DNA of 64,000 bases, from contig JAGPFQ010000001.1 of NCBI GenBank assembly GCA_018056375.1, positions 247,361 through 311,360 of the forward strand, in the 5' to 3' direction. The translations under genes were made by a program, and so were the position numbers. Source of the DNA: Candidatus Dojkabacteria bacterium (GTDB taxonomy: Bacteria > Patescibacteriota > Dojkabacteria > SC72). How positions within the stretch are numbered: the stretch's first letter is position 1; every line of letters begins with the position of its first letter. Shown here in pieces: positions 2,810 to 58,893 of this stretch. Under the pieces are notes generated by a model. It was given only the letters and a program-made list of their open reading frames with translations, ran no database searches and had not been told where the DNA came from.

Positions 2810-5800
2810 TTACAACGGTTTAAATCCAACTTCTTTCTTGTATATAGATTTATCTACATCAAAGAAGTTTTCTGCAAATTTAGTATATTTAGGATGGTAG
2901 TTAATGATTAGGGCTGGTCTTAGAGGGTTGTCTGCACCTAAGTTTCTTTGTAGAACGAATGCAGGAGATTCTCCTCCAATACCAAAGGCTATTAGTCCTC
3001 CTACTAGTAATACTTGGTCATGGTTTTCACTTACAGCTGCATCTTGGGCTATCGTTATTCTTTCTTTAGCAAGTAGGAATGCATCTATTCTGTCTGTACC
3101 ACCAGTAGCATGTCCATCGTTTACAATGATGTTCTTTTCTGAGAATACAAACATTGCATCATTGTTACTACTAGCATTTAGATTTCCTGTTATGGTTGTG
3201 TTACCTTTAGAATATATGAGGATTTTGCCACTGTATGTAATACCTCCTACATTTATATCTCCATCAGAACTGTAGTAGCATCCTAATTCTGACGTACAAT
3301 TTAATGTAGAGAGATTTCCAAGTTTTTTAAGCTTATTATTAGACATAGAGTTGTTTGCTTCTCTCTTGAGTGCTTCATAGAGGCTTACTTTGTTTTGTGC
3401 GTTTGTATCCTCTACTCCTTTGGCTACTGCTGGGTTTGGATTTGGTTCTGTGTTGTTGAAGTTTAGAATTATTGATATTGGATTTATACCATTTGCTTTT
3501 GTTGTTAATAGTTCTGAACCTAAGTTGTAGTAGTTAATATTAGGTTCTAGTTTTTTAGTTTCGTACTTAACTGTACCTTCTGAGTAAAATATTCCTCCTT
3601 TGGTAGACATCCATCTGTTGTAATCAAAAGGATCTGGGTCATCTGGGAATGGAGGTTCATCTGGATCTGGGTTTTGGTCTTGTCTACCAGTTCCACCAAA
3701 GTTACATGCTCTGTCATAGAGGGTTACATCGAACTTCAATGTACCAGAGGCTGTGTCACCTGTGTTAACAATCATATTTGTGGAATTACCATTGGAGTTT
3801 GTAGGATGATACCAACCACTTGTAATTACGATATTACCTTGTGCATCATAGCCGATATTACCCATCTCATCTGCACTGAGATTACCTGGTATTACTGCTT
3901 TTACTGGAATCGGAAGTGTTCTTGTTACCTCCTTTTTAGATGAAGAGCTAACATTTACAACTGTATGAACAATTTGAGAGTTAGGATGTCCTTTATCTGT
4001 ACTGGTCCATTTGAGTTGTAGGTTTTTTTGATCTTCTGTTGCAAGTCTATCAAGTGTTATTGCTGTTAATCTAGGATTTTTAAAATCAAAGTTCCATATC
4101 TGTCCTGTATTTTTAACAGACCTAATATCTGCAAAGTATCCATGTGGTTGGGTTGGGAAGAGTGTTAGATTATCCATCATACCTGTCCATATTTGGTATC
4201 TACCAGACAATGGTATGTTCTTTTCAAATTCGATTTTAATTGTCATATCTGTTGTATCTGTAGGATTTTGTGCATTCTTTACACTTTCCAGTGTTATTGT
4301 AGCTATTTTTGTTCTTTTACCATTATTGTTTACATATATGTATGGTTGTTGAATATTTGAGTTCTGTGGTACATCTCTACCCCAACCTTCAAAACCATTT
4401 CCATTATGTGATTTATATATGCCACCCATGGTATGAACCATTATCCCTATCTTATTTGGGTCTGATAATGTTGCACCTGGTCCTACGCCTGTGAGTGTGT
4501 TTCGTTCATTATCGATTGTACTTCCTTCTTTAACTAACCAGAGTACTGCAGCATTTATTCTGTGGTTTGCATCATCTTGTTCTGCTGCAAGATTAGTATT
4601 TATATCTCTTCCCTTTATTGTAAATGTGAGAATTCTGTTAGCTTCATTACCAGTGTATCTTGCTTCTGGTGTACATCCTTTAGCAGTGTTACCGGTTGTA
4701 TTGCCTGTTACAGTTGTAGAGATTACAGTAGGTGGTGTGTTTACTACGAAGTTGACTGATTTTGTAGTACCTTTGACCCAATTATCATCACATTTGTTTA
4801 GTGTTTCAAAAAAGGAAGAGAGTGTACCTTGATTTCCAGGGTTAAGTGATGGTGCTGTAGTTGGGATGTTGATAAAAGAGTTGAAGGGATTATCAACATT
4901 TAAGGTTCTTAGAATACCATTTAGTGTTACTCTTAAACCTCTTGCAGTGCTAGGTATACCAGGATTGTTTGTTTCTGTCCTTATCTCTGATGTTTTGTAT
5001 GGATATCGAATTACTGTTCTTCTTGTAGAAGAGAGTGGTTGGTATGTCGTCCATTCGAAATTATTAATACCTAATCTTTCATATATTTTAATACTTGTAA
5101 CATCAGGAACTGAGTTGTTGGTTTCTATATGATAGCAATCTGACTGATTACAGGTTTGTAAATTACCACAAGTATTAGTGTCTTGACAAGATGCTGGAAT
5201 ACCTAGACATAAATCACCTGTTTTAGTTGTTTTATAATTAATATTATTAAAGTTACTTGTTGCACACATTGCATCGGTTACTGTACATGAAGGTTCTGGG
5301 CAAGTACATGGAGGATTATCACCAGGTGGGACAAAGTGATAACCACAACATGCTCCAGCACCAATCTGGTCTGAACCACCACCAGCAACTGGTGGAGTAC
5401 ATCCGTATTCTTGGTACCAGCATGGTTTCCAAAGCTTTACACATGGATGCTCAGACTTCCAATCACAACCGTCCGGTGTACATGTTCCTTGCTTATTCTG
5501 CCAACCACAAGATACTTGGCAATTGGCTTCACATTGTGTTTTTGAATAATAACCTGTTGGTGTGGTAGGATGATCACAATAATGACCATTATCATTATGA
5601 TCAGTACCGCCACATATCCCGCCATAGGCAAGACTTTTACAAGTAGGTTTATCTCCACCAGAGCATGAGTAATAATAAATACCACCAACCTGATTACCAG
5701 TAGCACACACAGGTTCTGCTGGTGCCATAATGGGGGTGCAATCAACCCACGTAGCAAAAACAGATGATGGTAAGATGAGGAAGAGAAGCAAAACAATGAA

Positions 5801-5851
5801 CTTTACTAGAATTTTCTTACAAAGTTTTAATGGGTCCACATCAAAACACAC
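2810..5851 (-). CDS. Giant secreted protein of 1013 aa. It has a signal peptide, a Cys-rich N-terminal region of about 250 aa, and a long Asn/Thr/Gly-rich presumably beta-rich body.
   Basis: The N-terminus is hydrophobic (LLLFLILPSSVFA). There are more than 40 Cys in the first roughly 250 residues (CTCPEPSC, CGYHF and others). The remainder is Cys-poor and N/T/G-rich. It is the last gene of a minus-strand run. Confidence 0.55.
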   Translation of the reverse strand: MCFDVDPLKLCKKILVKFIVLLLFLILPSSVFATWVDCTPIMAPAEPVCATGNQVGGIYYYSCSGGDKPTCKSLAYGGICGGTDHNDNGHYCDHPTTPTGYYSKTQCEANCQVSCGWQNKQGTCTPDGCDWKSEHPCVKLWKPCWYQEYGCTPPVAGGGSDQIGAGACCGYHFVPPGDNPPCTCPEPSCTVTDAMCATSNFNNINYKTTKTGDLCLGIPASCQDTNTCGNLQTCNQSDCYHIETNNSVPDVTSIKIYERLGINNFEWTTYQPLSSTRRTVIRYPYKTSEIRTETNNPGIPSTARGLRVTLNGILRTLNVDNPFNSFINIPTTAPSLNPGNQGTLSSFFETLNKCDDNWVKGTTKSVNFVVNTPPTVISTTVTGNTTGNTAKGCTPEARYTGNEANRILTFTIKGRDINTNLAAEQDDANHRINAAVLWLVKEGSTIDNERNTLTGVGPGATLSDPNKIGIMVHTMGGIYKSHNGNGFEGWGRDVPQNSNIQQPYIYVNNNGKRTKIATITLESVKNAQNPTDTTDMTIKIEFEKNIPLSGRYQIWTGMMDNLTLFPTQPHGYFADIRSVKNTGQIWNFDFKNPRLTAITLDRLATEDQKNLQLKWTSTDKGHPNSQIVHTVVNVSSSSKKEVTRTLPIPVKAVIPGNLSADEMGNIGYDAQGNIVITSGWYHPTNSNGNSTNMIVNTGDTASGTLKFDVTLYDRACNFGGTGRQDQNPDPDEPPFPDDPDPFDYNRWMSTKGGIFYSEGTVKYETKKLEPNINYYNLGSELLTTKANGINPISIILNFNNTEPNPNPAVAKGVEDTNAQNKVSLYEALKREANNSMSNNKLKKLGNLSTLNCTSELGCYYSSDGDINVGGITYSGKILIYSKGNTTITGNLNASSNNDAMFVFSEKNIIVNDGHATGGTDRIDAFLLAKERITIAQDAAVSENHDQVLLVGGLIAFGIGGESPAFVLQRNLGADNPLRPALIINYHPKYTKFAENFFDVDKSIYKKEVGFKPL

Positions 5852-5859
5852 TTAATTTA

Positions 5860-7263
5860 TTACTGTCCAAACAAATTGCTTGGCTTACCAAAAAGGATAT
5901 GGTGTTGAGGTGTTACTGGAAATTCTTCCATTGTATCTATTGTATTGATGGTGTAGTTAACTTCTCCTCTTTCATTTCCTGGCTTTACAAAAGATATTAC
6001 TCCTATAATTTTTCCTTTCTGTTTATCTGTATATATATCAACCTTTATAGCAACATCCTCATCAAATCGCATAATTACATCACCTATCTGTTCATCACCT
6101 TCCCTTCTTAGAGAAGCTCCTTGTTCATAGAGTTCATAAGGTGTTATTCCCTCCCTAATACAAGCAAACAACCTTTCATCAGAGTGTTCTCTTGCAATTT
6201 CGGTAGCTACTCTAGCATGTACCAATTTGCGGCTAATATGGTCTGCCATGACTGCAATGGAATCCCAATGTCCTTCATACAACCTTCTCATGAGATTATA
6301 ACCAGATTCTTCATAGTTAATCATCTCGGAGAATCGAACTTCTTCCCCATTCTCGTACTTTTTTGTAGACATATTTTGGAAAGCTAAAGCTAGTGCATCT
6401 GATTCTGCTTGTGAAATATGATTAAAGAAAATCGGTATGATAGTTAACACTTCCCCTGCCTCTCTTTCTTCTGCAAAGTCATATCTTAGATTGTTTTTAT
6501 CTGCAACTGACAAAATAACTGACACTCTATTACAATCTTTACCTGTATAGTCCTCCACACAAGCATTACCTACAACTCCAACTTGAATAGTATTTCCTTC
6601 TTGATCTGTAACTGTTCTTCTATGCAAAATTGGGAAATCAAGTGATGTAGCCTCCATTAGTGAGACTGACATTTTCCTAACTACCTCGTCTTCCTTAGGT
6701 GAAAATATCTTTGAAAAATATATCCTTGAAGGATCAACAGTATAAACTTTGTTAATATTCTGTTCTAGTCTCTTTTCTCTAAGTGTATCACTACTTAATA
6801 TCTTCTCTAGAAGTGCTTCTGCTTCCTCCCTCTCCATATCTCTTCTAAATTCAGGCGTAGGTGTTTGTGTAGGGGTTGATATCTCTGTCGCTGTAGGTGT
6901 AAATGTTGTAGATACAGTTGGTTCTGGAGTATATGTTGGAGTAGACAACTCTGTTGTAGAAGTTGAGGTAGGAGCTTGTTCTTTCCTTACGGTTTCTGTT
7001 GGTCTACCTCCTTTGGTTTCCTCAGTTTCGCTAATATAATCTTGATTTGGCAGAGTATTACAACCTACTGCTCCTTTAGCCATAGCTAAAGCTGCTAATG
7101 ATAAAATAAGCTTTGTTTTAGGACTATATTTAGATTTCGCCTTTGGTTTTTCTTCTATACTCTCCTGCCCATACACTATATCCACATCATCCATTTCCTC
7201 AAAATCTGCTACTAAATCTTGGTCTTCTTGGGCAGGTTCTACAAAGTGTTCTTGTTCGTTCAT
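5860..7263 (-). CDS. Membrane-anchored protein. It has an acidic N-terminal tail, one TM or lipobox-like segment (LAALAMAKGAVGC), a Thr/Pro-rich linker and a globular domain of unknown function.
   Basis: Composition and hydropathy of the translation. There is a TPTYTPEPT...TPTQTPTPE linker. Confidence 0.45.
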   Translation of the reverse strand: MNEQEHFVEPAQEDQDLVADFEEMDDVDIVYGQESIEEKPKAKSKYSPKTKLILSLAALAMAKGAVGCNTLPNQDYISETEETKGGRPTETVRKEQAPTSTSTTELSTPTYTPEPTVSTTFTPTATEISTPTQTPTPEFRRDMEREEAEALLEKILSSDTLREKRLEQNINKVYTVDPSRIYFSKIFSPKEDEVVRKMSVSLMEATSLDFPILHRRTVTDQEGNTIQVGVVGNACVEDYTGKDCNRVSVILSVADKNNLRYDFAEEREAGEVLTIIPIFFNHISQAESDALALAFQNMSTKKYENGEEVRFSEMINYEESGYNLMRRLYEGHWDSIAVMADHISRKLVHARVATEIAREHSDERLFACIREGITPYELYEQGASLRREGDEQIGDVIMRFDEDVAIKVDIYTDKQKGKIIGVISFVKPGNERGEVNYTINTIDTMEEFPVTPQHHILFGKPSNLFGQ

Positions 7264-7275
7264 ATAAAATATTTT

Positions 7276-8440
7276 TTAATTAGAATTTATATAGGATATT
7301 ATATCAAGTCTTTTGGTCAAAGGGCTTTCAAACTCTTTAAGAGAGATAATTAAAGTATTCTCAAGATCTATTACTTCATTTGTTTCTTCAGTCAGTTTAT
7401 TTATTAAATCTACTCCATCGGTGAGAGGTTGATTTTCTCCTATAAAGTCATCTTTATTCATGCAAAATATTTCAAGCATTAGAGGAGGTTTTTCAATTTT
7501 ACATATACTATCAATCTCTTCTGAAGAATGTTTAAAATCTTTTGTCAAATAACCTAAGCTCAACTCATATTTCCCTCCTATCTTTATATCTTCCATATTC
7601 TCTGTGGTTATTACAGTTCCATCCTCTTTGTCCTCTTTTTTGAAATGGAAGCCTCTCGTTTTAGCTGTAAACTTAACTTCCTTATCCTTAATCCTTGAAG
7701 TAAAAGTCATATAGATAAAATCTTCTTTAATTTCCTTATCTGTAAGTATTGTTTCAAGTATGATTATTTTTCCTGTTTCTTCTATAGTAAGAGCGTATTT
7801 ATCTACGGTTATATAGTTCTGAAAATCTTCTATATTCAGATAGTTGGTTTTAACGTTGGAATTATTCCACCTTGGTGGTTTATCTGTTTGTACAAAGGAG
7901 TTGTAATATTCTTCTTCGGTAGCATTCCTTATCTCTATATTGTTGTAATAGTAGTGACCATAATCTTTTGTTGAATACACAAAAGAGTATATTGTTGGTG
8001 TTAGTTTATCTTTCTCTTCTTTCCACTTATCTATTTCGTGCCATAGAATATTTTTCTCTTCTATACAGAAGTTCATCAACTCTGGCTGTTTATCTTTCTC
8101 TTTACTAGATAAAATCAGGATATTGAAACAATGATTTTCAATCTTATTGTCTAGTGGGGTTGAAGGATAAATAAGTGCATTACAACTTACTTTTATCACC
8201 CCCCCCCATTTTAATATGATCACAATCTTCCAACATCTCTTCGTACCTATCTAATGTAAACCACCTACCATATTTAATACCATTAGATATGACATCTTTG
8301 TAAAGAAGTGAAATACCACTAAATAGTAGAATGAAAAAAAAGATAGATAACAAGCGTATTGTATTGTTAGAAGCAACTACCTTCATTGAAAAAAAATTAT
8401 ACCACAAAACCTCCATTACACAAATTTCAATAATACTCAT
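7276..8440 (-). CDS. Single membrane-anchored protein gene split by a G9 homopolymer frameshift. Track ORFs 8180..8440 and 7276..8223 overlap at the tract. A G8 variant would give one ORF of about 388 aa.
   Basis: The upstream ORF ends KMGGGDKSKL* and the downstream ORF begins ...KWGGVIK. Both read through the same GGGGGGGGG run. The two frames differ by 1. The N-terminal piece carries a TM helix (LLSIFFFILLFSGISLL). Confidence 0.45.
8199..8207 (-). repeat. Homopolymeric G9 tract (C9 on the + strand) inside a coding region. It is a slipped-strand phase-variation candidate or a sequencing error.
   Basis: Read directly: ttttatcaccccccccccatttt. A 9-nt G/C run is extreme in this AT-rich sequence. 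Confidence 0.8.
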
Positions 8441-8446
8441 GTTTAC

Positions 8447-9655
8447 CTACTTTGATGTATAGTCATCAAAATAACCCTGTACTAAAACAACAGGAGTCCC
8501 TTTATCACCACTACCACTTGTAAGATCCATAAGGCTTCCTAGAAGGTCTGTGAGTTGTCTAGGAGTAGTTCCTAAAGAATTCTTTCCATTGTACTCCTTA
8601 CTCTTCTTTTCATTAATAGCATCCTCTACACACTTTTTAATATCACCCTTACCATCCCAATTTTCAGAAATCACTTTTAGTTTTACCTCTTTTGGTCTAC
8701 CAACTAACCCATCAGTATATGCAGGAGAAACAACAGGATCTGCTAGCTCCCATATTTGTCCTACAGGATCCTTAAATGCACCATCTCCATATATCATTAC
8801 TTCTATCTTTGCACCTGTTTTCTCAAATAGCTCCTTCTGTATCTTTCTTACCAAAACTTCACCCTCTTTTACCCTAGGAAACAATTTCATATTCCCCTCT
8901 CCTACTTTGTTAGCTCCAAGCAAACCATAGTCTACATTGTACCCTCTTCCTTCTACTACCTCATTACAGATATCCTCTAAACCATATACAACCTGTCCAC
9001 CACCTTCTTTAATCAATCTCTTTGTCTTTTTCCTGTTATGTATATCACAAACTAAAACATTCTTTGTAAAGTTTAATATATATTTAGGATTGTTTGAGAA
9101 GTGAGGAATAACTTGTCCTTCTTTTCCTAAACTTTTGTAGTATTCAATGTAGTCTAAACCTGTAAATTCGTGTTTAAAATCATAACCGAATACCTCTCTA
9201 AATTCTTTTTCATCAAAAGAGTCATTTAGACTTACATCTTCTATCATTTTTGGATCAAGAATATGATTGCCAACTTCATCTGATGGGTAGCTGAAAAGGA
9301 TATGAACCTTTTTACAAGCTTTAAGAATAGCTTCAAGTATCATGGAGAATCTGTTTCTACTTAGTATTGGAAAGACTAAACCTATATCTTCACTACCAAA
9401 CTTTTTCTCAATCTCTTTAGCAACATCATCTATACTTACATAGTTAGAGTCACAGATGGATACAACTGCTTCTGTTATTCCAACTACATCTTTGTTATTA
9501 AACTTAAAACCATCACTTTTAGATGCTCTAAGTAACGAATCAACAACAATATCTACAAGGTTATCACCATGTTTGATAATTGGGGTTCTGATTCCCCTTA
9601 CAACTGTTCCTGTGTTTCTCATTTGTATGATTTTAAAATTATTACAGCAGAACAA
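8447..9655 (-). CDS. CofE-like protein of the F420-0:gamma-glutamyl ligase family (long form).
   Basis: The N-terminus PIIKHGDNLVDIVVDSL...DVVGITEAVVS and the C-terminus GTPVVLVQGY resemble the CofE fold signatures. Family-level call only. Confidence 0.4.
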   Translation of the reverse strand: MFCCNNFKIIQMRNTGTVVRGIRTPIIKHGDNLVDIVVDSLLRASKSDGFKFNNKDVVGITEAVVSICDSNYVSIDDVAKEIEKKFGSEDIGLVFPILSRNRFSMILEAILKACKKVHILFSYPSDEVGNHILDPKMIEDVSLNDSFDEKEFREVFGYDFKHEFTGLDYIEYYKSLGKEGQVIPHFSNNPKYILNFTKNVLVCDIHNRKKTKRLIKEGGGQVVYGLEDICNEVVEGRGYNVDYGLLGANKVGEGNMKLFPRVKEGEVLVRKIQKELFEKTGAKIEVMIYGDGAFKDPVGQIWELADPVVSPAYTDGLVGRPKEVKLKVISENWDGKGDIKKCVEDAINEKKSKEYNGKNSLGTTPRQLTDLLGSLMDLTSGSGDKGTPVVLVQGYFDDYTSK

Positions 9656-9824
9656 AAGGCTTTTATTGCAACAATTTCTTTAATATGGATATACATTAAT
9701 GATAATGTTGCATATTATTATTTCATAATATAGAGATGAGGGCAAGAGGAAAAATGAACTAGTAAAGACAAATATCAAAGATACTTAATTGTAGTTATAA
9801 AGTGTTTGAATCAAAACAAATTAT

Positions 9825-10574: not shown

Positions 10575-10661
10575 TTTAGTATTGTTAATAGTATTTTAAT
10601 TATTATAACAGAAGTATTGTATGTTTTATTTAGATTATCAGAAATGGTAGTATATATAGTT

Positions 10662-11945
10662 ATGAATAGAAATAAACAGATTAAAGTTATAGACTTATTC
10701 GCAGGTGTAGGAGGTTTCAGAGTTGCTTTCAATCAAGCAAATGAAACAATAGGAAAAAATGTTTACAAGGTTGTTTGGGGAAATCAATGGGAGCCAGAGA
10801 GAAAAGCACAATACGCAGCAGAAATATATGTTAGAGAGTTTGGTAAAGAAGATTTTGTAAATGAAGATATTGCTAAAGTAGAAACTAAGGATATTCCTAA
10901 TCATGACTTAATGGTTGGAGGTTTTCCTTGCCAAGATTACTCTGTAGCAACAACAAAAAAGCTTTCTGGTGGTATAGAAGGAAAGAAAGGTGTTTTGTGG
11001 TGGCAAATAGAAAGAATCATTCGAGAGAAGGCTGACAAAAAACCTGAATTCCTACTGTTTGAAAATGTCGACCGACTAATCAGTTCACCTGCAAAACAAC
11101 GAGGAAGAGATTTCGCAATAATGTTGGCTTGTCTAGATATGCTTGGATATATGGTGGAATGGAGAGTTATTGATGCAAGTGAATATGGTTATCCTCAAAG
11201 AAGAAAACGTATTTATTTTATGGGTTATCGTGATAATTCAAAAATCTATAAATCATATGATGGCAATTACCCTGCATGGATATTAGAAAAAGGTCTGTTC
11301 GCTAAGGGCTTTCCTGCAAAGATTAAAGGAAATTCGACATTTAACAGCATATCGCTTTACAAAGGAATTCGAAGTAGAAAATATTCTTCAATAATTAGAG
11401 ATATTAGTGACAAATTCAATAAAGGTGGAAAAGTATCTCCTTTTAAAAAAGCTGGATTAATATATAAGGGTGAAATACATACCATTGAAGTAGAAGCTGA
11501 CTACAAAGGGAAAAAGACTACGCTTGGCGATATTATTATCAAAGAAGAATCAAAGATTGATAAAGAATTTTTCATTCCTAAAGAAGAATATCCTAAATGG
11601 AAATATCTAAAAGGTGCAAAGAAAGAAAATAGAGTGCAAAAGTCGACAGGTTTTGTTTATCAATATTCTGAAGGTGCAATCACATATCCAGATGCCTTAG
11701 ACAAACCATCAAGGACAATTATCACTGCAGAAGGTGGAAAAGCACCATCAAGGTTTAAACATGTGATAAAAACAAAGTCCGGTAAATTACGTAGACTAAC
11801 TCCTGTTGAATTAGAGAGATTAGACATGTTCCCAGATAACCATACAGAGGGATATACACCACAAACTCGAGCATTTCTAATGGGCAATGCCCTCGTGGTA
11901 GGAGTAATAAAGAAGATTGCAGAAACACTATATGAGAAAATGTAA
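10662..11945 (+). CDS. DNA (cytosine-5)-methyltransferase. The start was moved to MNRNKQIKVIDLFAG.
   Basis: Motif I is DLFAGVGGF. Motif IV is GGFPCQDYS. Motif VI is LLFENV. Motif VIII is QRRKRIYF. Motif X is GNALVVGV. Confidence 0.85.
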   Translation: MNRNKQIKVIDLFAGVGGFRVAFNQANETIGKNVYKVVWGNQWEPERKAQYAAEIYVREFGKEDFVNEDIAKVETKDIPNHDLMVGGFPCQDYSVATTKKLSGGIEGKKGVLWWQIERIIREKADKKPEFLLFENVDRLISSPAKQRGRDFAIMLACLDMLGYMVEWRVIDASEYGYPQRRKRIYFMGYRDNSKIYKSYDGNYPAWILEKGLFAKGFPAKIKGNSTFNSISLYKGIRSRKYSSIIRDISDKFNKGGKVSPFKKAGLIYKGEIHTIEVEADYKGKKTTLGDIIIKEESKIDKEFFIPKEEYPKWKYLKGAKKENRVQKSTGFVYQYSEGAITYPDALDKPSRTIITAEGGKAPSRFKHVIKTKSGKLRRLTPVELERLDMFPDNHTEGYTPQTRAFLMGNALVVGVIKKIAETLYEKM

Positions 11946-13284
11946 ATACGGTCAGTATGACGAAAAATCTAAAGAATCAATATTAGAGTATGCCCTTCTC
12001 TTGTTAAACAAGTCATTATTTGACTTATATGCTGAAGAAATCGAGAAAGAAATAGTAAAACGAAAAGGTAAGGGTTCTCTAGGACAATTAGTTGAAGAAT
12101 TACATTTTAATTATGAACCCAATGAAAAACCAGTACCTGACTTCCCAGAAGCAAACTTAGAGTTAAAGACAACACCTTTAAAAATTGTTCGAGGTGAATA
12201 TGTTTCAAAAGAACGGCTTGTTTTAAACATGATAGATTATTTTAAGATTGTAGAAGAAACTTTTGATACTTCTTCATTCCTCAAGAAAAACTCTTCTCTG
12301 CTTTTAATGTTTTATCTCTTTGAGAAAGGTGAAATACATAAACAAATATTCAAACTTATTAAAATCTGGGACATTCCAAAAAATGATTATTTAGTTATAA
12401 AAGAAGATTGGGAAAAAATAGCCTCAATGGTAAGGGAAGGAAGAGCAGAAGAAATATCTGGAGGAGACACCTTTTATCTTGAAGCTGCAAGAAAAGGTGC
12501 TGGTAAAGGCAAAGATTTAACCAAACAACCCTACTCTGATGTTCTTGCAAATAGAAGAGCTTTTGCATTTAAAAGCAGGTATGTGAATGAGATAATAAAA
12601 GCTGATGGAAGTTTAGAGAGTGTACTAGATGAAGAATTTAACGAAAGTAAGAAGACTGTTGAACAGTATATTATAGATAAATTCAAACCATATCTTGGTA
12701 AATCTCTAGGTGAATTAGAGAAGATATTCAACCTTTCCTACTCAAAGAAAAAGAAGGATAAAACAGCTGCAATCTCTAAGGCTATTTTAGGTGTTTCTGA
12801 AGACAATAAAATTGCAGAATTTGAGAAAGCAAATATACAAATGAAAACTATACCTCTAAGTTTAAATGGTCGTGTCAAAGAGAGTATGTCTTTTAGTAGA
12901 ATTTATTATAAAAAGATAATAAATGAAAAATGGCTTGATTCTGACTTTTACAATAAAGTTGTAGATAGAAAATTCTTTTTTGTAATATTCAGAGATAATA
13001 AACAAGGAAACAGAATTTTGGAAAGAGTAATGTTTTGGAATATGCCTAGTCATACTAGAAAGATAGCAAAAGAATACTGGTTGGATATTAGAAGGAAAGT
13101 TAGAAACAATGATACTTCAAACTTCTGGAAAATCTCTGATAAAAAAGTATTCCATGTTAGACCAAAAGCGAGAAATGCTATGGATACAACGACTCTTAGA
13201 GATGGAACAGAAGCCCCAAAGTTAGCATACTGGATTAATGCTAAATATATAGAATCAGTAATCGAGGGACAAGAAATAGGATAA
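11917..13284 (+). CDS. MutH/Sau3AI-family type II restriction endonuclease, probably GATC-type. It forms an R-M pair with the adjacent C5-methyltransferase.
   Basis: GSLGQLVEEL...PDFPEANLELKTTPL matches the MutH region G.LGELA...PEQDFAALGVELKTIP. The size and the C5-methyltransferase partner fit the Sau3AI arrangement. The start overlaps the methyltransferase 3' end. Confidence 0.55.
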   Translation: MQKHYMRKCKYGQYDEKSKESILEYALLLLNKSLFDLYAEEIEKEIVKRKGKGSLGQLVEELHFNYEPNEKPVPDFPEANLELKTTPLKIVRGEYVSKERLVLNMIDYFKIVEETFDTSSFLKKNSSLLLMFYLFEKGEIHKQIFKLIKIWDIPKNDYLVIKEDWEKIASMVREGRAEEISGGDTFYLEAARKGAGKGKDLTKQPYSDVLANRRAFAFKSRYVNEIIKADGSLESVLDEEFNESKKTVEQYIIDKFKPYLGKSLGELEKIFNLSYSKKKKDKTAAISKAILGVSEDNKIAEFEKANIQMKTIPLSLNGRVKESMSFSRIYYKKIINEKWLDSDFYNKVVDRKFFFVIFRDNKQGNRILERVMFWNMPSHTRKIAKEYWLDIRRKVRNNDTSNFWKISDKKVFHVRPKARNAMDTTTLRDGTEAPKLAYWINAKYIESVIEGQEIG

Positions 13285-14792: not shown

Positions 14793-14865
14793 GCGAGAGT
14801 AGTTCAGTTGGTAGAATGTCTCCTTCCCAAGGAGAAGGTCGCGGGTTCGAATCCCGTCTCTCGCT
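14793..14865 (+). tRNA. tRNA-Gly(CCC).
   Basis: Acceptor is GCGAGAG/CTCTCGC. Anticodon loop is TTCCCAA. Discriminator is U. T-loop is TTCGAAT. Confidence 0.85.
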
Positions 14866-47029: not shown

Positions 47030-49753
47030 ATGAATATATTAAAGAAAAAGGTAGGTTTTGGAGCAGGAATTCTTTTTTCAATTTTACTCAGTATTGGTAT
47101 TGTTTTTCTATCTATAAAAAATAAAGAATTAATTTACATTATAGAAAGACAACCATTTGATGTTGTAGTTGCTAATCTTACTCCTACTTCTGCAGAGGTT
47201 TACTGGAAAACCTTAAAACCTACAAATAGTATTCTATCCTATCGAGAAAGAAGCAGTTCAGCCTTTTACACAGATGCTCTTGATTCTGATTTATACAAAG
47301 ACATGAAAGATGGAAACTATATCAACAAAGTTAAAATTAGTAATCTAAAACCAGAAAAGAGTTATATCTATCGCATTAAGTCTGCAGAGTACAAATGGGA
47401 AGATAATTTTGCTTTTAAAACAAAATCTATTGATGAGAAAATAGACTATCCACATATAAAGAGTGGTGATAGTAATATTGGTGCATTTATCTTAATCCAG
47501 AAAGATGAAGAGAATAGAATGCTCTATACAGGAATAGATAAAACTTGGGCTTTAGATTTTGATAGTGATGACTATACAGTTAAAGAGTATGCTCAATTCC
47601 TACCATCAATGTACTTAAGGGATGAGCTTCAAGCAACCATTTTAAATATTATTCAACCTGTATCTGCAAGAAGCGGACCTAACTGTATGACAAATATTAA
47701 AAGGAATGATGATCAATACTATCCTAAACCTTCAGGACTCACTGAACTAATGGAAACTAGATCTTCTGGACAAATTTTAATTGCAGGATGCATAGGTCAT
47801 CATACAGAAGAATGCTATGATGATACATATTGTAGGTCTGTTGAGGCTGGAATAAATCCAGCAATCACTTTAACTCTTTGGGTTCATGAAAGTGCTGCTA
47901 GTATGTATGCAGCAGAGGGTACAAGACCATTCTGGACACATACAGAAGACTTTGGTATTCATAAAGACAGTATCAAAAACAATTTCAGTGCACAATTGGA
48001 TCACTTACTTAGCGTACAGCTGGATCCTAGTTACATCTCAGGATATTGTACCAACAAAGGTTTATCTGATGACCAGAGATGGGCAACAAAATATGCTTGT
48101 GGGTATTGTGAACGTCCTGCAGGGTCTTCCCTACAACCAGGACAACGTTGTTATGAACCAACGGTAACAGGAAAAGAATATATTTCGCAAATAAAATCAT
48201 ATTACTCTTTGCTAGGAGGTGCCGGTTCCCTACCTTCATGGCCTTGGAAAGTAACAGCTAATCAAAATGCATGTGATAGATCTAGTCAAACAGAGAATCA
48301 AGTATTTAGAGAGTGTGATGGTACTAGGACAGGTTCAAATCCATCACCATCGCCTAGCCCATCACCTTCACCAACTCCTCCTTCATACTGTTCTTCTAAC
48401 CCACCTGGTAAGATGGATATTAGAATTGGAGAAACATGTAGGGATGGAGGTGGGTGTGAATGTTTTAAAGGTGAGTTTAAACCTAGTAATTATCTCCATG
48501 ATGTACCGTGTGGAGAAAAATGTACAGAAGACAGTCCTCAACCATCACCGAGTCCATCGCCTTCACCGAGTCCATCGCCTTCACCAAGTCCATCGCCTTC
48601 ACCGAGTCCATCGCCTTCACCAAGTCCATCGCCTTCACCAAGTCCGTCGCCATCACCAACCCCTCCTCCTTCATACTGTTCATCTAACCCACCAGGTAAA
48701 GAGGATATTAAGATAGGCGAAACATGTAAAGATGGAGGTGGATGTGAATGTTTTGATGGAGAATTCAAACCTGAAAACTATATCCATGATGTACCATGTG
48801 GAGAAGTATGTGAAGCTATAGTTAAAAAAGAAATACATATAACAGATAAGGATGTTATTTGTGATGATGAGAATGGTTGTATCTGTATATATCCAAATGG
48901 CGATAAAAAGGAGGCTAACGAAGATCAAATATGTACAGTTGACGGAAGAGTTATAGAAAACCCAGATAAGGGTAAAACTGTACTCGAAATAACAGATAAA
49001 GATGAATATTGTAAAGATAGTAGAGGATGTGTATGTTATTGGGATAATAAAAAAGTTAAAAAAGAAACCGAAAAAGATTATACATGTACTGTTGACCAAG
49101 AAGTTATAAAAACAGAGAAAATTTGTTGTTATGATAACGAAAGACTCTCAACACAAATGCCTTATGATTGTGAAGGAGTCATTTATGATAATATACCAGA
49201 AGATTTTTGTAGGATTGAAACTACAAAATACAATGTTAAAAAAGGATATAGTTTCATAAACCCTCTTCTGTTAATAGGAGAACAAGAATATACTCCAAAA
49301 AGTGCCCACGATTTGATAAATATATCAGATAAAAGGATTACTACCGTTGGTCTATTTGAAAATAGTCAGTGGACAAAGGTTGTTGAGTTAAAAGATGGAA
49401 AAATACACGGAACTGACTTTGTACTAGAGAGTGGTAAAACATATATGCTAATATCTCAACATCCTGTTGAATTTTCAGTTACTGGAGTAAGAATACCTGC
49501 ACCCAATATCAAAGATATGGTTGGTTGGAATCTAATACCATCATATACCATATCGAAAGATAGCAACGATGCTAAGGAGTTACTAGGTAAAGTAGAATAC
49601 AATTCAATGCACCAGATAGCACAATGGAGCATGATTAAAAGTCACTTCTTGTATACAATAAAGGATTCAAAAAACAATATCTTTGGTGATGATATTAAAA
49701 TCAATGATAGTGAAGGAATCTTCATTAGAATGAAACAGAATGAACCTATCTAG
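47030..49753 (+). CDS. Giant secreted protein of 907 aa. It has an N-terminal TM or signal segment, an FN3-like domain, a Cys-rich region, two copies of a (SP)n-linked CECF module and two copies of an ITDKD...C.C module.
   Basis: DVVVANLTPTSAEVYWKT...YIYRIKS is FN3-like. SYCSSNPPGK.DI.IGETC.DGGGCECF.GEFKP.NY.HDVPCGE occurs twice. ITDKD..C.D..GC.C...CTVD..VI occurs twice. Confidence 0.55.
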   Translation: MNILKKKVGFGAGILFSILLSIGIVFLSIKNKELIYIIERQPFDVVVANLTPTSAEVYWKTLKPTNSILSYRERSSSAFYTDALDSDLYKDMKDGNYINKVKISNLKPEKSYIYRIKSAEYKWEDNFAFKTKSIDEKIDYPHIKSGDSNIGAFILIQKDEENRMLYTGIDKTWALDFDSDDYTVKEYAQFLPSMYLRDELQATILNIIQPVSARSGPNCMTNIKRNDDQYYPKPSGLTELMETRSSGQILIAGCIGHHTEECYDDTYCRSVEAGINPAITLTLWVHESAASMYAAEGTRPFWTHTEDFGIHKDSIKNNFSAQLDHLLSVQLDPSYISGYCTNKGLSDDQRWATKYACGYCERPAGSSLQPGQRCYEPTVTGKEYISQIKSYYSLLGGAGSLPSWPWKVTANQNACDRSSQTENQVFRECDGTRTGSNPSPSPSPSPSPTPPSYCSSNPPGKMDIRIGETCRDGGGCECFKGEFKPSNYLHDVPCGEKCTEDSPQPSPSPSPSPSPSPSPSPSPSPSPSPSPSPSPSPSPSPSPTPPPSYCSSNPPGKEDIKIGETCKDGGGCECFDGEFKPENYIHDVPCGEVCEAIVKKEIHITDKDVICDDENGCICIYPNGDKKEANEDQICTVDGRVIENPDKGKTVLEITDKDEYCKDSRGCVCYWDNKKVKKETEKDYTCTVDQEVIKTEKICCYDNERLSTQMPYDCEGVIYDNIPEDFCRIETTKYNVKKGYSFINPLLLIGEQEYTPKSAHDLINISDKRITTVGLFENSQWTKVVELKDGKIHGTDFVLESGKTYMLISQHPVEFSVTGVRIPAPNIKDMVGWNLIPSYTISKDSNDAKELLGKVEYNSMHQIAQWSMIKSHFLYTIKDSKNNIFGDDIKINDSEGIFIRMKQNEPI
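48534..48659 (+). repeat. Tandem repeat of about seven copies of an 18-nt unit (tcaccRagtccatcgcct). It encodes about 19 Ser-Pro dipeptides. A shorter (SP)5 run lies at about 48341-48373.
   Basis: Read directly from the sequence. The unit alternates ccg/cca at one position. Confidence 0.8.
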
Positions 49754-58757: not shown

Positions 58758-58893
58758 GTATCAGTATTTATTATATCACAAAGATATGTTGTAATGAGAC
58801 AAAATTCAATTTGCGGTTAAAGCACAAAAAATGGTATAATTAAGAACTGAGAGAGAATCCCCCCTTTTATGGTAAAAGGCAATGGGACTCTCT

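Follow-up and report, generated by a model that had tools for sequence, protein, structure and literature searches.

Dojkabacteria (formerly WS6) are a candidate phylum placed in the CPR/Patescibacteria, organisms that are mostly uncultivated and thought to live attached to other cells, and many of whose surface proteins are unannotated. In the stretch of Dojkabacteria DNA analyzed here (64,000 nucleotides, referred to below as the window), a gene for a predicted membrane-anchored protein is broken into two reading frames at a run of nine G on its coding strand, which raises the question of whether the break is a reversible switch, a boundary between two genes, a sign of decay or an error of assembly. 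A first-pass annotation of the window had proposed a slipped-strand phase-variation switch, with a homopolymer length error in the assembly as the alternative.

The poly-G tract and the reading frames around it

On the minus strand the site reads ...ATTAAAAT GGGGGGGGG TGATAAAAG... (in a second rendering of its flanks, ...GATCATATTAAAAT-GGGGGGGGG-TGATAAAAGTAAGTTGTAATGC...), corresponding to C9 at positions 8199-8207 of the plus strand, and the tract codons specify Met-Gly-Gly(-Val), residues 60-63 of the 369-aa form of the protein. Two ORFs, 8180..8440 (86 aa, ending in KMGGGDKSKL*) and 7276..8223 (315 aa, with KWGGVIK), overlap at the tract and lie one frame apart, the 3' piece being in the +1 frame relative to the 5' piece. 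The position of the nine G at the junction of these ORFs was confirmed from the sequence, and the ORF coordinates, end sequences and one-frame offset given by the first-pass annotation were all reproduced in the ORF translations. When the tract was edited in silico, full-length products were obtained from ATG 8440 with G8 (387 aa) and G11 (388 aa), and truncated products with G7 (80 aa), G9 (86 aa), G10 (81 aa) and G12 (87 aa), so that gain or loss of a single G toggles between a full-length and a truncated product. The single ORF of about 388 aa that had been expected for G8 was thus recovered at 387 aa; the accompanying statement that G9 plus three more would also be in frame fails if G12 was meant, the next in-frame length being G11. 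The stop codon of the 3' piece (TAA 7276-7278) is common to the in-frame (ON) and out-of-frame (OFF) alleles.

Such a run is highly atypical for this DNA, as had been remarked at the outset. The window has a G+C content of 33.6% and holds no other G/C run longer than six, the runner-up being C6 at 58859-58864, and of 100 dinucleotide-preserving shuffles 3 contained a run of nine G, an average of 0.03 per window. GGG accounts for 8% of the Gly codons in the window's long ORFs, where it is the second-rarest Gly codon, and GGGGGG spells none of the 99 Gly-Gly pairs in the other long ORFs. To judge from sequence comparison, the tract is specific to the lineage of the window, because distant relatives without it read ...CDWEREGKELKIKC... 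at the site where the window lineage has ...CDHIKMGGVIKVSC....

The ORF list places the start of the 5' piece at ATG 8440, a start that is not conserved. The true start is probably ATG 8386-8384, giving a protein of 369 aa, because all relatives start there and because a T7/T8 difference puts ATG 8440 out of frame in other strains. The N-termini of the relatives all follow the pattern MK(V/I/F)(S/T)AS.., and gene callers choose the 8386 start in the T7 strains. From this start, the 5' piece of the G9 allele runs to a premature TAA at 8180-8182 and forms a 68-aa stub. The T8 run at 8389-8396, which sets whether the upstream ATG 8440 is in frame, is T7 in the second haplotype and in the DNA of the closest relative (L001). 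Next to it, TGGTATAAT at 8396-8404 is a candidate promoter element purely by consensus match, and its placement would imply a very short or absent leader. A generic scan for promoters and terminators gave hits at or below shuffle expectation and was not informative. The features of the locus, together with the homopolymers used as controls for the tract, are collected in Table 1.

Table 1. Features of the split gene and its surroundings, and comparison homopolymers, in window coordinates
Feature	Position	Strand	Remarks
Poly-G tract	8199..8207	-	G9 in the window, out of frame (OFF); in-frame (ON) length G8
5' piece of gene	8180..8386	-	Predicted N-terminal membrane anchor (TM residues 10-28) and conserved motif DVISNGIKYGRWFTLDRYEE..DC
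3' piece of gene	7276..8198	-	Ectodomain-like, about 307 aa, 5 of 6 conserved Cys
Probable true start codon ATG (MKVVASNN...)	8384..8386	-	Conserved in all relatives
T8 run after TGGTATAAT extended -10-like match	8389..8404	-	10 nt before ATG
467-aa gene, downstream, co-directional	5860..7263	-	Starts 12 nt after the switch gene
1013-aa gene, downstream, co-directional	2810..5851	-	Signal-peptide-like N-terminus, Cys-rich region
Homopolymer T8	8334-8341		Identical in 43/43 loci
Homopolymer A6	7636-7641		Identical in 50/50 loci
Homopolymer A6	6359-6364		Identical in 28/28 loci
Homopolymer C5	5732-5736		Identical in 28/28 loci
Homopolymer T8/T7	8389-8396		Differs between haplotypes only
Homopolymer A6/A5	7272-7277		Differs between haplotypes only

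Intact relatives of the split gene

A word-index search with the fused protein identified ten relatives, each of them a single ORF of 346-369 aa with no Pfam domain, and an exhaustive profile-free search of 1.84 billion cluster representatives raised the number to 41 in all. The full-length members among them have 324-370 aa and share their N-terminus; the others are partial sequences or fragments of the N-terminal region, two of which match exactly the stubs predicted from frameshifted alleles. The closest match (P0001) is 99% identical to the fused protein and intact, and its DNA carries G8, one G fewer than the window. Its 90%-identity cluster includes intact products of 369, 370 and 387 aa as well as 5'-truncated calls of 315, 307 and 266 aa. 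The G8 allele forms an intact ORF of 369/387 aa in 26 fetched contigs, and the more distant relatives are all single ORFs, so that the comparison with related genomes proposed by the first-pass annotation yielded fused orthologues in both groups.

In GenBank, the gene is listed as two unrelated hypothetical proteins of 68 aa and 266 aa without a frameshift flag (MBP8979091.1 with MBP8979090.1, and MGI6444029.1 with MGI6444030.1), and both large GenBank MAG contigs carry the G9 OFF allele. The first pair, recorded under the name Candidatus Dojkabacteria bacterium, lies on the contig of 644,853 nt, as does the exact 86-aa fragment of the window, and the second pair lies on the contig of 750,790 nt. 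Taken at face value, this annotation would mean two genuinely separate genes, one for a small membrane peptide and the other for a cytoplasmic protein. Such a reading is scarcely conceivable given that every relative is one ORF across both parts, that conserved Cys residues straddle the junction (C55 before it and C68 after it), and that G8 alleles join the two pieces exactly.

Tract lengths in metagenome contigs

A total of 57 near-identical contigs were fetched from independent assemblies (Logan, ENA, and NCBI) made with different assemblers, and all tract lengths were read from assembled consensus contigs. With identical flanks, the tract is G7 in one contig, G8 in 26, G9 in 23 and G10 in seven, of which only G8 is in frame; as the contigs were retrieved per exact protein variant, with up to 10 places for each look-up, these counts are not unbiased frequencies, nor are samples within one run series independent of each other. 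About half of the fetched contigs have an OFF allele as their consensus. At least one of the source samples is labeled as an anaerobic-digester metagenome. Exact-pattern scans of genome and metagenome contig collections, using either the flanks with a variable gap or the downstream flank alone, returned no match.

Haplotypes were compared over window positions 5700-8300 (2.6 kb) in 51 sequences (50 contigs plus the window), which fall into 10 SNP haplotypes, with two or three tract lengths in each of six. Ten sequences in the haplotype to which the window belongs have G8, six G9 and four G10; the haplotype with a different upstream gene has three with G8, four with G9 and one with G10; and in the 8%-divergent haplotypes G7, G8, G9 and G10 are all present. 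Since several lengths occur inside haplotypes that are SNP-identical over 2.6 kb, at least eight independent length changes are required against zero SNPs. Tract length is therefore polymorphic among otherwise identical sequences, and more than one length is found in each of three genomic backgrounds (cofE upstream with haplotype A, cofE upstream with haplotype B, and dUTPase upstream). Among 36 window-like loci (97-100% identical over 1.2-6.9 kb aligned), 26 indel differences from the window were counted: 22 in the tract, each in a different locus, one at the T8 run and three at intergenic position 9747. Divergence between haplotypes is only about 2% within the switch gene, so conservation of the tract is inseparable from recent common ancestry.

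The dominant allele also shifts between samples of the same series in otherwise identical sequence. In the ERR142320xx series, the tract is G9 in ERR14232072 and G10 in ERR14232075 and ERR14232062; in SRR268831xx, three samples (SRR26883129, -131 and -134) have G8 and SRR26883126 has G9; and in SRR280274xx, two (SRR28027411 and -412) have G8 and SRR28027407 has G9. Other series are uniform: all G9 in SRR337376xx, all G8 in DRR4385xx, and G10 in both MUNK22-1 contigs.

Homopolymers are error prone in sequencing and assembly, some of the contigs have very low coverage (L042 is labeled cov 1.06), and the large MAG contigs could be derived from long reads, all of which would fit an error at the homopolymer with a true length of G8 everywhere. 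Heritable alleles predict two common modes, agreement within series and constant control runs, whereas random error around one value does not. Both G8 and G9 are common, unlike a single mode with rare neighbors, and lengths agree within most run series and across SPAdes NODE_, MEGAHIT k127/k141 and Logan contigs. The focal tract excepted, no homopolymer in these loci varies within a haplotype (Table 1). A further control is offered by another Dojkabacteria species, in which a 960-aa gene contains, in frame, C9-TG-C6 on the coding strand (encoding DPPPCPPGPC; located at 7382-7398 of L058 and also present in L059, L060 and L062-L068). Both the C9 and the C6 are constant in 10 of 10 covering contigs, which come in part from ERR14232075 (G10 at the focal tract) and ERR14232066 (G8 at the focal tract). 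The constancy of the control runs and the variation of the tract in SNP-identical DNA argue against the assembly error that the first-pass annotation had offered as its alternative, and this explanation is considered very improbable. The control run is also a second long G/C run in the same gene neighborhood. Because the control C9 never varies, a 9-nt G/C run is not always polymorphic at the consensus level, and the contrast between it and the focal tract may reflect selection rather than mutation rate.

The tract thus sets the reading frame, intact G8 alleles are common, and length changes recur in identical backgrounds at this site and no other. We favor, with a probability of roughly 0.75, the reading that a hypermutable poly-G tract subjects a predicted surface protein to classical slipped-strand phase variation, and the switch suggested by the first-pass annotation gains support from the fused G8 orthologues and from the occurrence of G7-G10 in otherwise SNP-identical DNA. 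In the proposed mechanism, slipped-strand mispairing during replication would add or remove a G. With G8 (and, by frame, also with G5 or G11) the full protein would be made and the gene would be ON; with G9, translation would stop six codons past the tract, and with G7 or G10 it would stop at a TGA immediately after it. The OFF states would leave an anchor stub of 62-68 aa, and the window would represent an OFF allele. Switching would be reversible within a lineage, and mixtures of ON and OFF cells might be useful, for example, against phage or in contact with host cells.

Homopolymer runs can make the ribosome or RNA polymerase slip. It is conceivable on this ground that the G9 allele is functional and that the full protein is produced by programmed recoding, either +1 ribosomal frameshifting or transcriptional slippage, and a tRNA-Gly(CCC) gene is present in the window (14793-14865). 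In-frame G8 alleles are common, though, and distant relatives do without the tract. Moreover, OFF alleles occur in both alternative frames (G9 versus G7/G10), and no single recoding event could therefore be conserved, which makes programmed recoding extremely improbable. Low-level slippage could nevertheless leak some product from OFF alleles.

The main rival of phase variation is a neutral mutational hotspot in a dispensable or decaying gene, in which OFF alleles are tolerated and switching is not selected. The share of OFF consensus alleles noted above, including those of both large MAG contigs, is compatible with this idea, as are the lack of a sequence match for the function of the protein and one JGI contig that appears to have a further break (pieces of 163 aa and 144 aa). 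Against it, ON and OFF alleles share SNP-identical backgrounds, from which it follows that the OFF states are young; in the recovered OFF alleles the downstream frame stays open as far as the normal stop (an observation biased by retrieval through intact ORFs); intact ORFs of the family persist across Dojkabacteria; and a run of G8-9 built from a rare Gly codon would be unexpected without selection in a 34% G+C genome. A neutral hotspot is accordingly rated unlikely. A fixed pseudogene was considered and rejected, given that ON and OFF alleles occur in identical haplotypes and that the downstream frame is intact in the recovered OFF alleles, with the same proviso that retrieval favored intact ORFs.

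Protein family, gene neighborhood and known switching systems

The protein has a single hydrophobic segment, residues 10-28 of the 369-aa form, which lies in the 5' piece, in agreement with the earlier placement of the sole TM helix in the N-terminal part. It is followed by a conserved juxtamembrane motif, KDVISNGIKYGRWF.D.YE, and six Cys residues (C55, C68, C86, C107, C295, and C308) vary little or not at all among family members, the tract being situated between the first two. The C-terminal two thirds are very divergent among relatives. No match was found in Pfam, NCBIfam or PDB sequence profiles, and the protein is probably a membrane-anchored, extracytoplasmic and disulfide-bonded member of a small unannotated family. 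Its exposure at the surface is predicted from the one N-terminal TM segment, the six conserved Cys, the divergent C-terminal region and neighboring genes with signal-like N-termini.

Identical or near-identical anchors of about 55-72 aa were observed on unrelated C-terminal domains (P0004 versus P0006, and P0023 versus P0031), which suggests modular replacement of the ectodomain between strains. The poly-G tract was also considered as a recombination junction for swapping of C-terminal cassettes, an idea that found no support for this gene, since different locus contexts diverge about 110 nt upstream of the tract and not at it. These contexts were seen in L012, L017, L020, L046 and L053-L057, in which the same gene stands behind a dCTP deaminase/dUTPase gene and not behind the CofE-like gene; such loci are identical to the window from about 110 nt upstream of the tract onward and have a different signal-anchor sequence (compared with window 8300-8450). 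This arrangement is best read as a rearrangement of the locus or a transfer between strains.

In the 467-aa protein encoded directly downstream, a charged and hydrophobic stretch terminates in a lipobox-like AVGC, after which comes a Thr/Pro-rich linker. Wherever a fetched locus extends far enough, the gene for this protein adjoins the switch gene. Its divergence between strains, about 8% when taken over the region, far exceeds that of the switch gene (about 2%), and in the second haplotype (L022-L040 and L051-L052, compared with window 5590-7150) several fixed in-frame indels are found in the Thr/Pro-rich linker. The first-pass annotation had placed the switch gene in an operon with other surface proteins; this holds only in part. 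Signal- or lipobox-like N-termini are present in both downstream products, the 467-aa and the 1013-aa protein, but neither has a family match, and the upstream gene encodes a cytoplasmic CofE-like ligase.

The 1013-aa protein is 40% identical to the 960-aa protein encoded directly after a family member in the other Dojkabacteria species. A conserved partnership between the family member and a protein of about 1000 aa is suggested because, in that species, the family member overlaps the start of the 960-aa gene by 8 nt. There, it is the large gene that carries the C9 tract. It is possible, though doubtful, that the poly-G tract acts as the contingency switch of an entire surface module in a CPR episymbiont, in which the anchored protein is tied to the Cys-rich protein of about 1000 aa, the OFF state removes a host-contact structure or phage receptor through loss of the partner or polarity, and swappable C-terminal domains add a second layer of variation. 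If true, the Candidate Phyla Radiation would have its first reported contingency system based on simple repeats, and pressure from hosts or phages in digester communities could be read from a sequence marker.

Simple-sequence-repeat contingency loci are marked by a homopolymer or short repeat of unstable length in the ORF or promoter (for G/C, about 7-8 or more) and by mixed tract lengths in one clonal population, with reversible switching at about 1e-2 to 1e-5 per generation. Coding poly-G tracts are well known from contingency loci of Neisseria meningitidis and N. gonorrhoeae, such as hmbR, hpuAB, and pgtA (PMC3786947, PMC5084427, PMC2193922). As in those loci, the tract described here lies early in the ORF of a protein predicted to be envelope-associated, gain or loss of one G alters the frame and cuts the product short, and ON and OFF alleles occur among otherwise near-identical isolates (here, contigs). 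The Neisseria loci have no sequence relationship to the window gene, and they belong to host-adapted Proteobacteria with measured switching rates and known functions, whereas the present case concerns an uncultivated CPR lineage and is inferred from assembled consensus sequences. In Campylobacter and Helicobacter, genes that are phase-variable through G/C homopolymers typically have tracts of G8-G11 (PMC8355987, PMC2823697). Their genomes resemble the window in being AT-rich, with long G/C runs that are rare and located in genes for surface structures (here, predicted ones), but they contain about 20-30 tracts each, compared with one within the 64-kb window. Switching by homopolymer frameshift has also been described in Mycobacterium tuberculosis (glpK and others) and Bordetella pertussis (PMC10334774, PMC1891110), where, as here, it was inferred from recurrent homoplasic changes of tract length across many genomes; those studies used isolate genomes with read-level and experimental validation, in contrast to the metagenome contigs used here.

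Within the literature searched, the nearest CPR case is a hypervariable gene of Gracilibacterium that encodes a putative extracellular protein with PTD 9-mer repeats (PMC6851277). It is likewise a single locally hypervariable gene, read as being under diversifying pressure, but the protein is altered by in-frame changes in the number and order of 9-nt repeats and not by a homopolymer that frameshifts the gene ON and OFF. Among the papers covered, none describes phase variation by simple repeats in CPR bacteria, Patescibacteria or Saccharibacteria. How such a switch works is textbook knowledge, and the advance lies in where the switch occurs and in the evidence from natural populations. Repeated natural switching between ON and OFF would flag the gene as environment-facing, with a phage receptor, a factor in host contact or an antigen-like target as candidate roles of its product. 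As the state of the switch can be read from metagenomes, it can be correlated with the abundance of phages or hosts over time.

Two further observations were made elsewhere in the window. An 18-nt tandem repeat at 48545-48659 (6.4 copies, 94% matches, unit TCACCAAGTCCATCGCCT) could encode an in-frame hexapeptide repeat. At 10617-13284, a gene for a C5 cytosine DNA methylase (Pfam DNA_methylase, E 5e-63) overlaps one for a protein with a MutH/Sau3AI-type endonuclease domain (E 1e-34), and the pair probably represents a type II restriction-modification system rather than mismatch repair.
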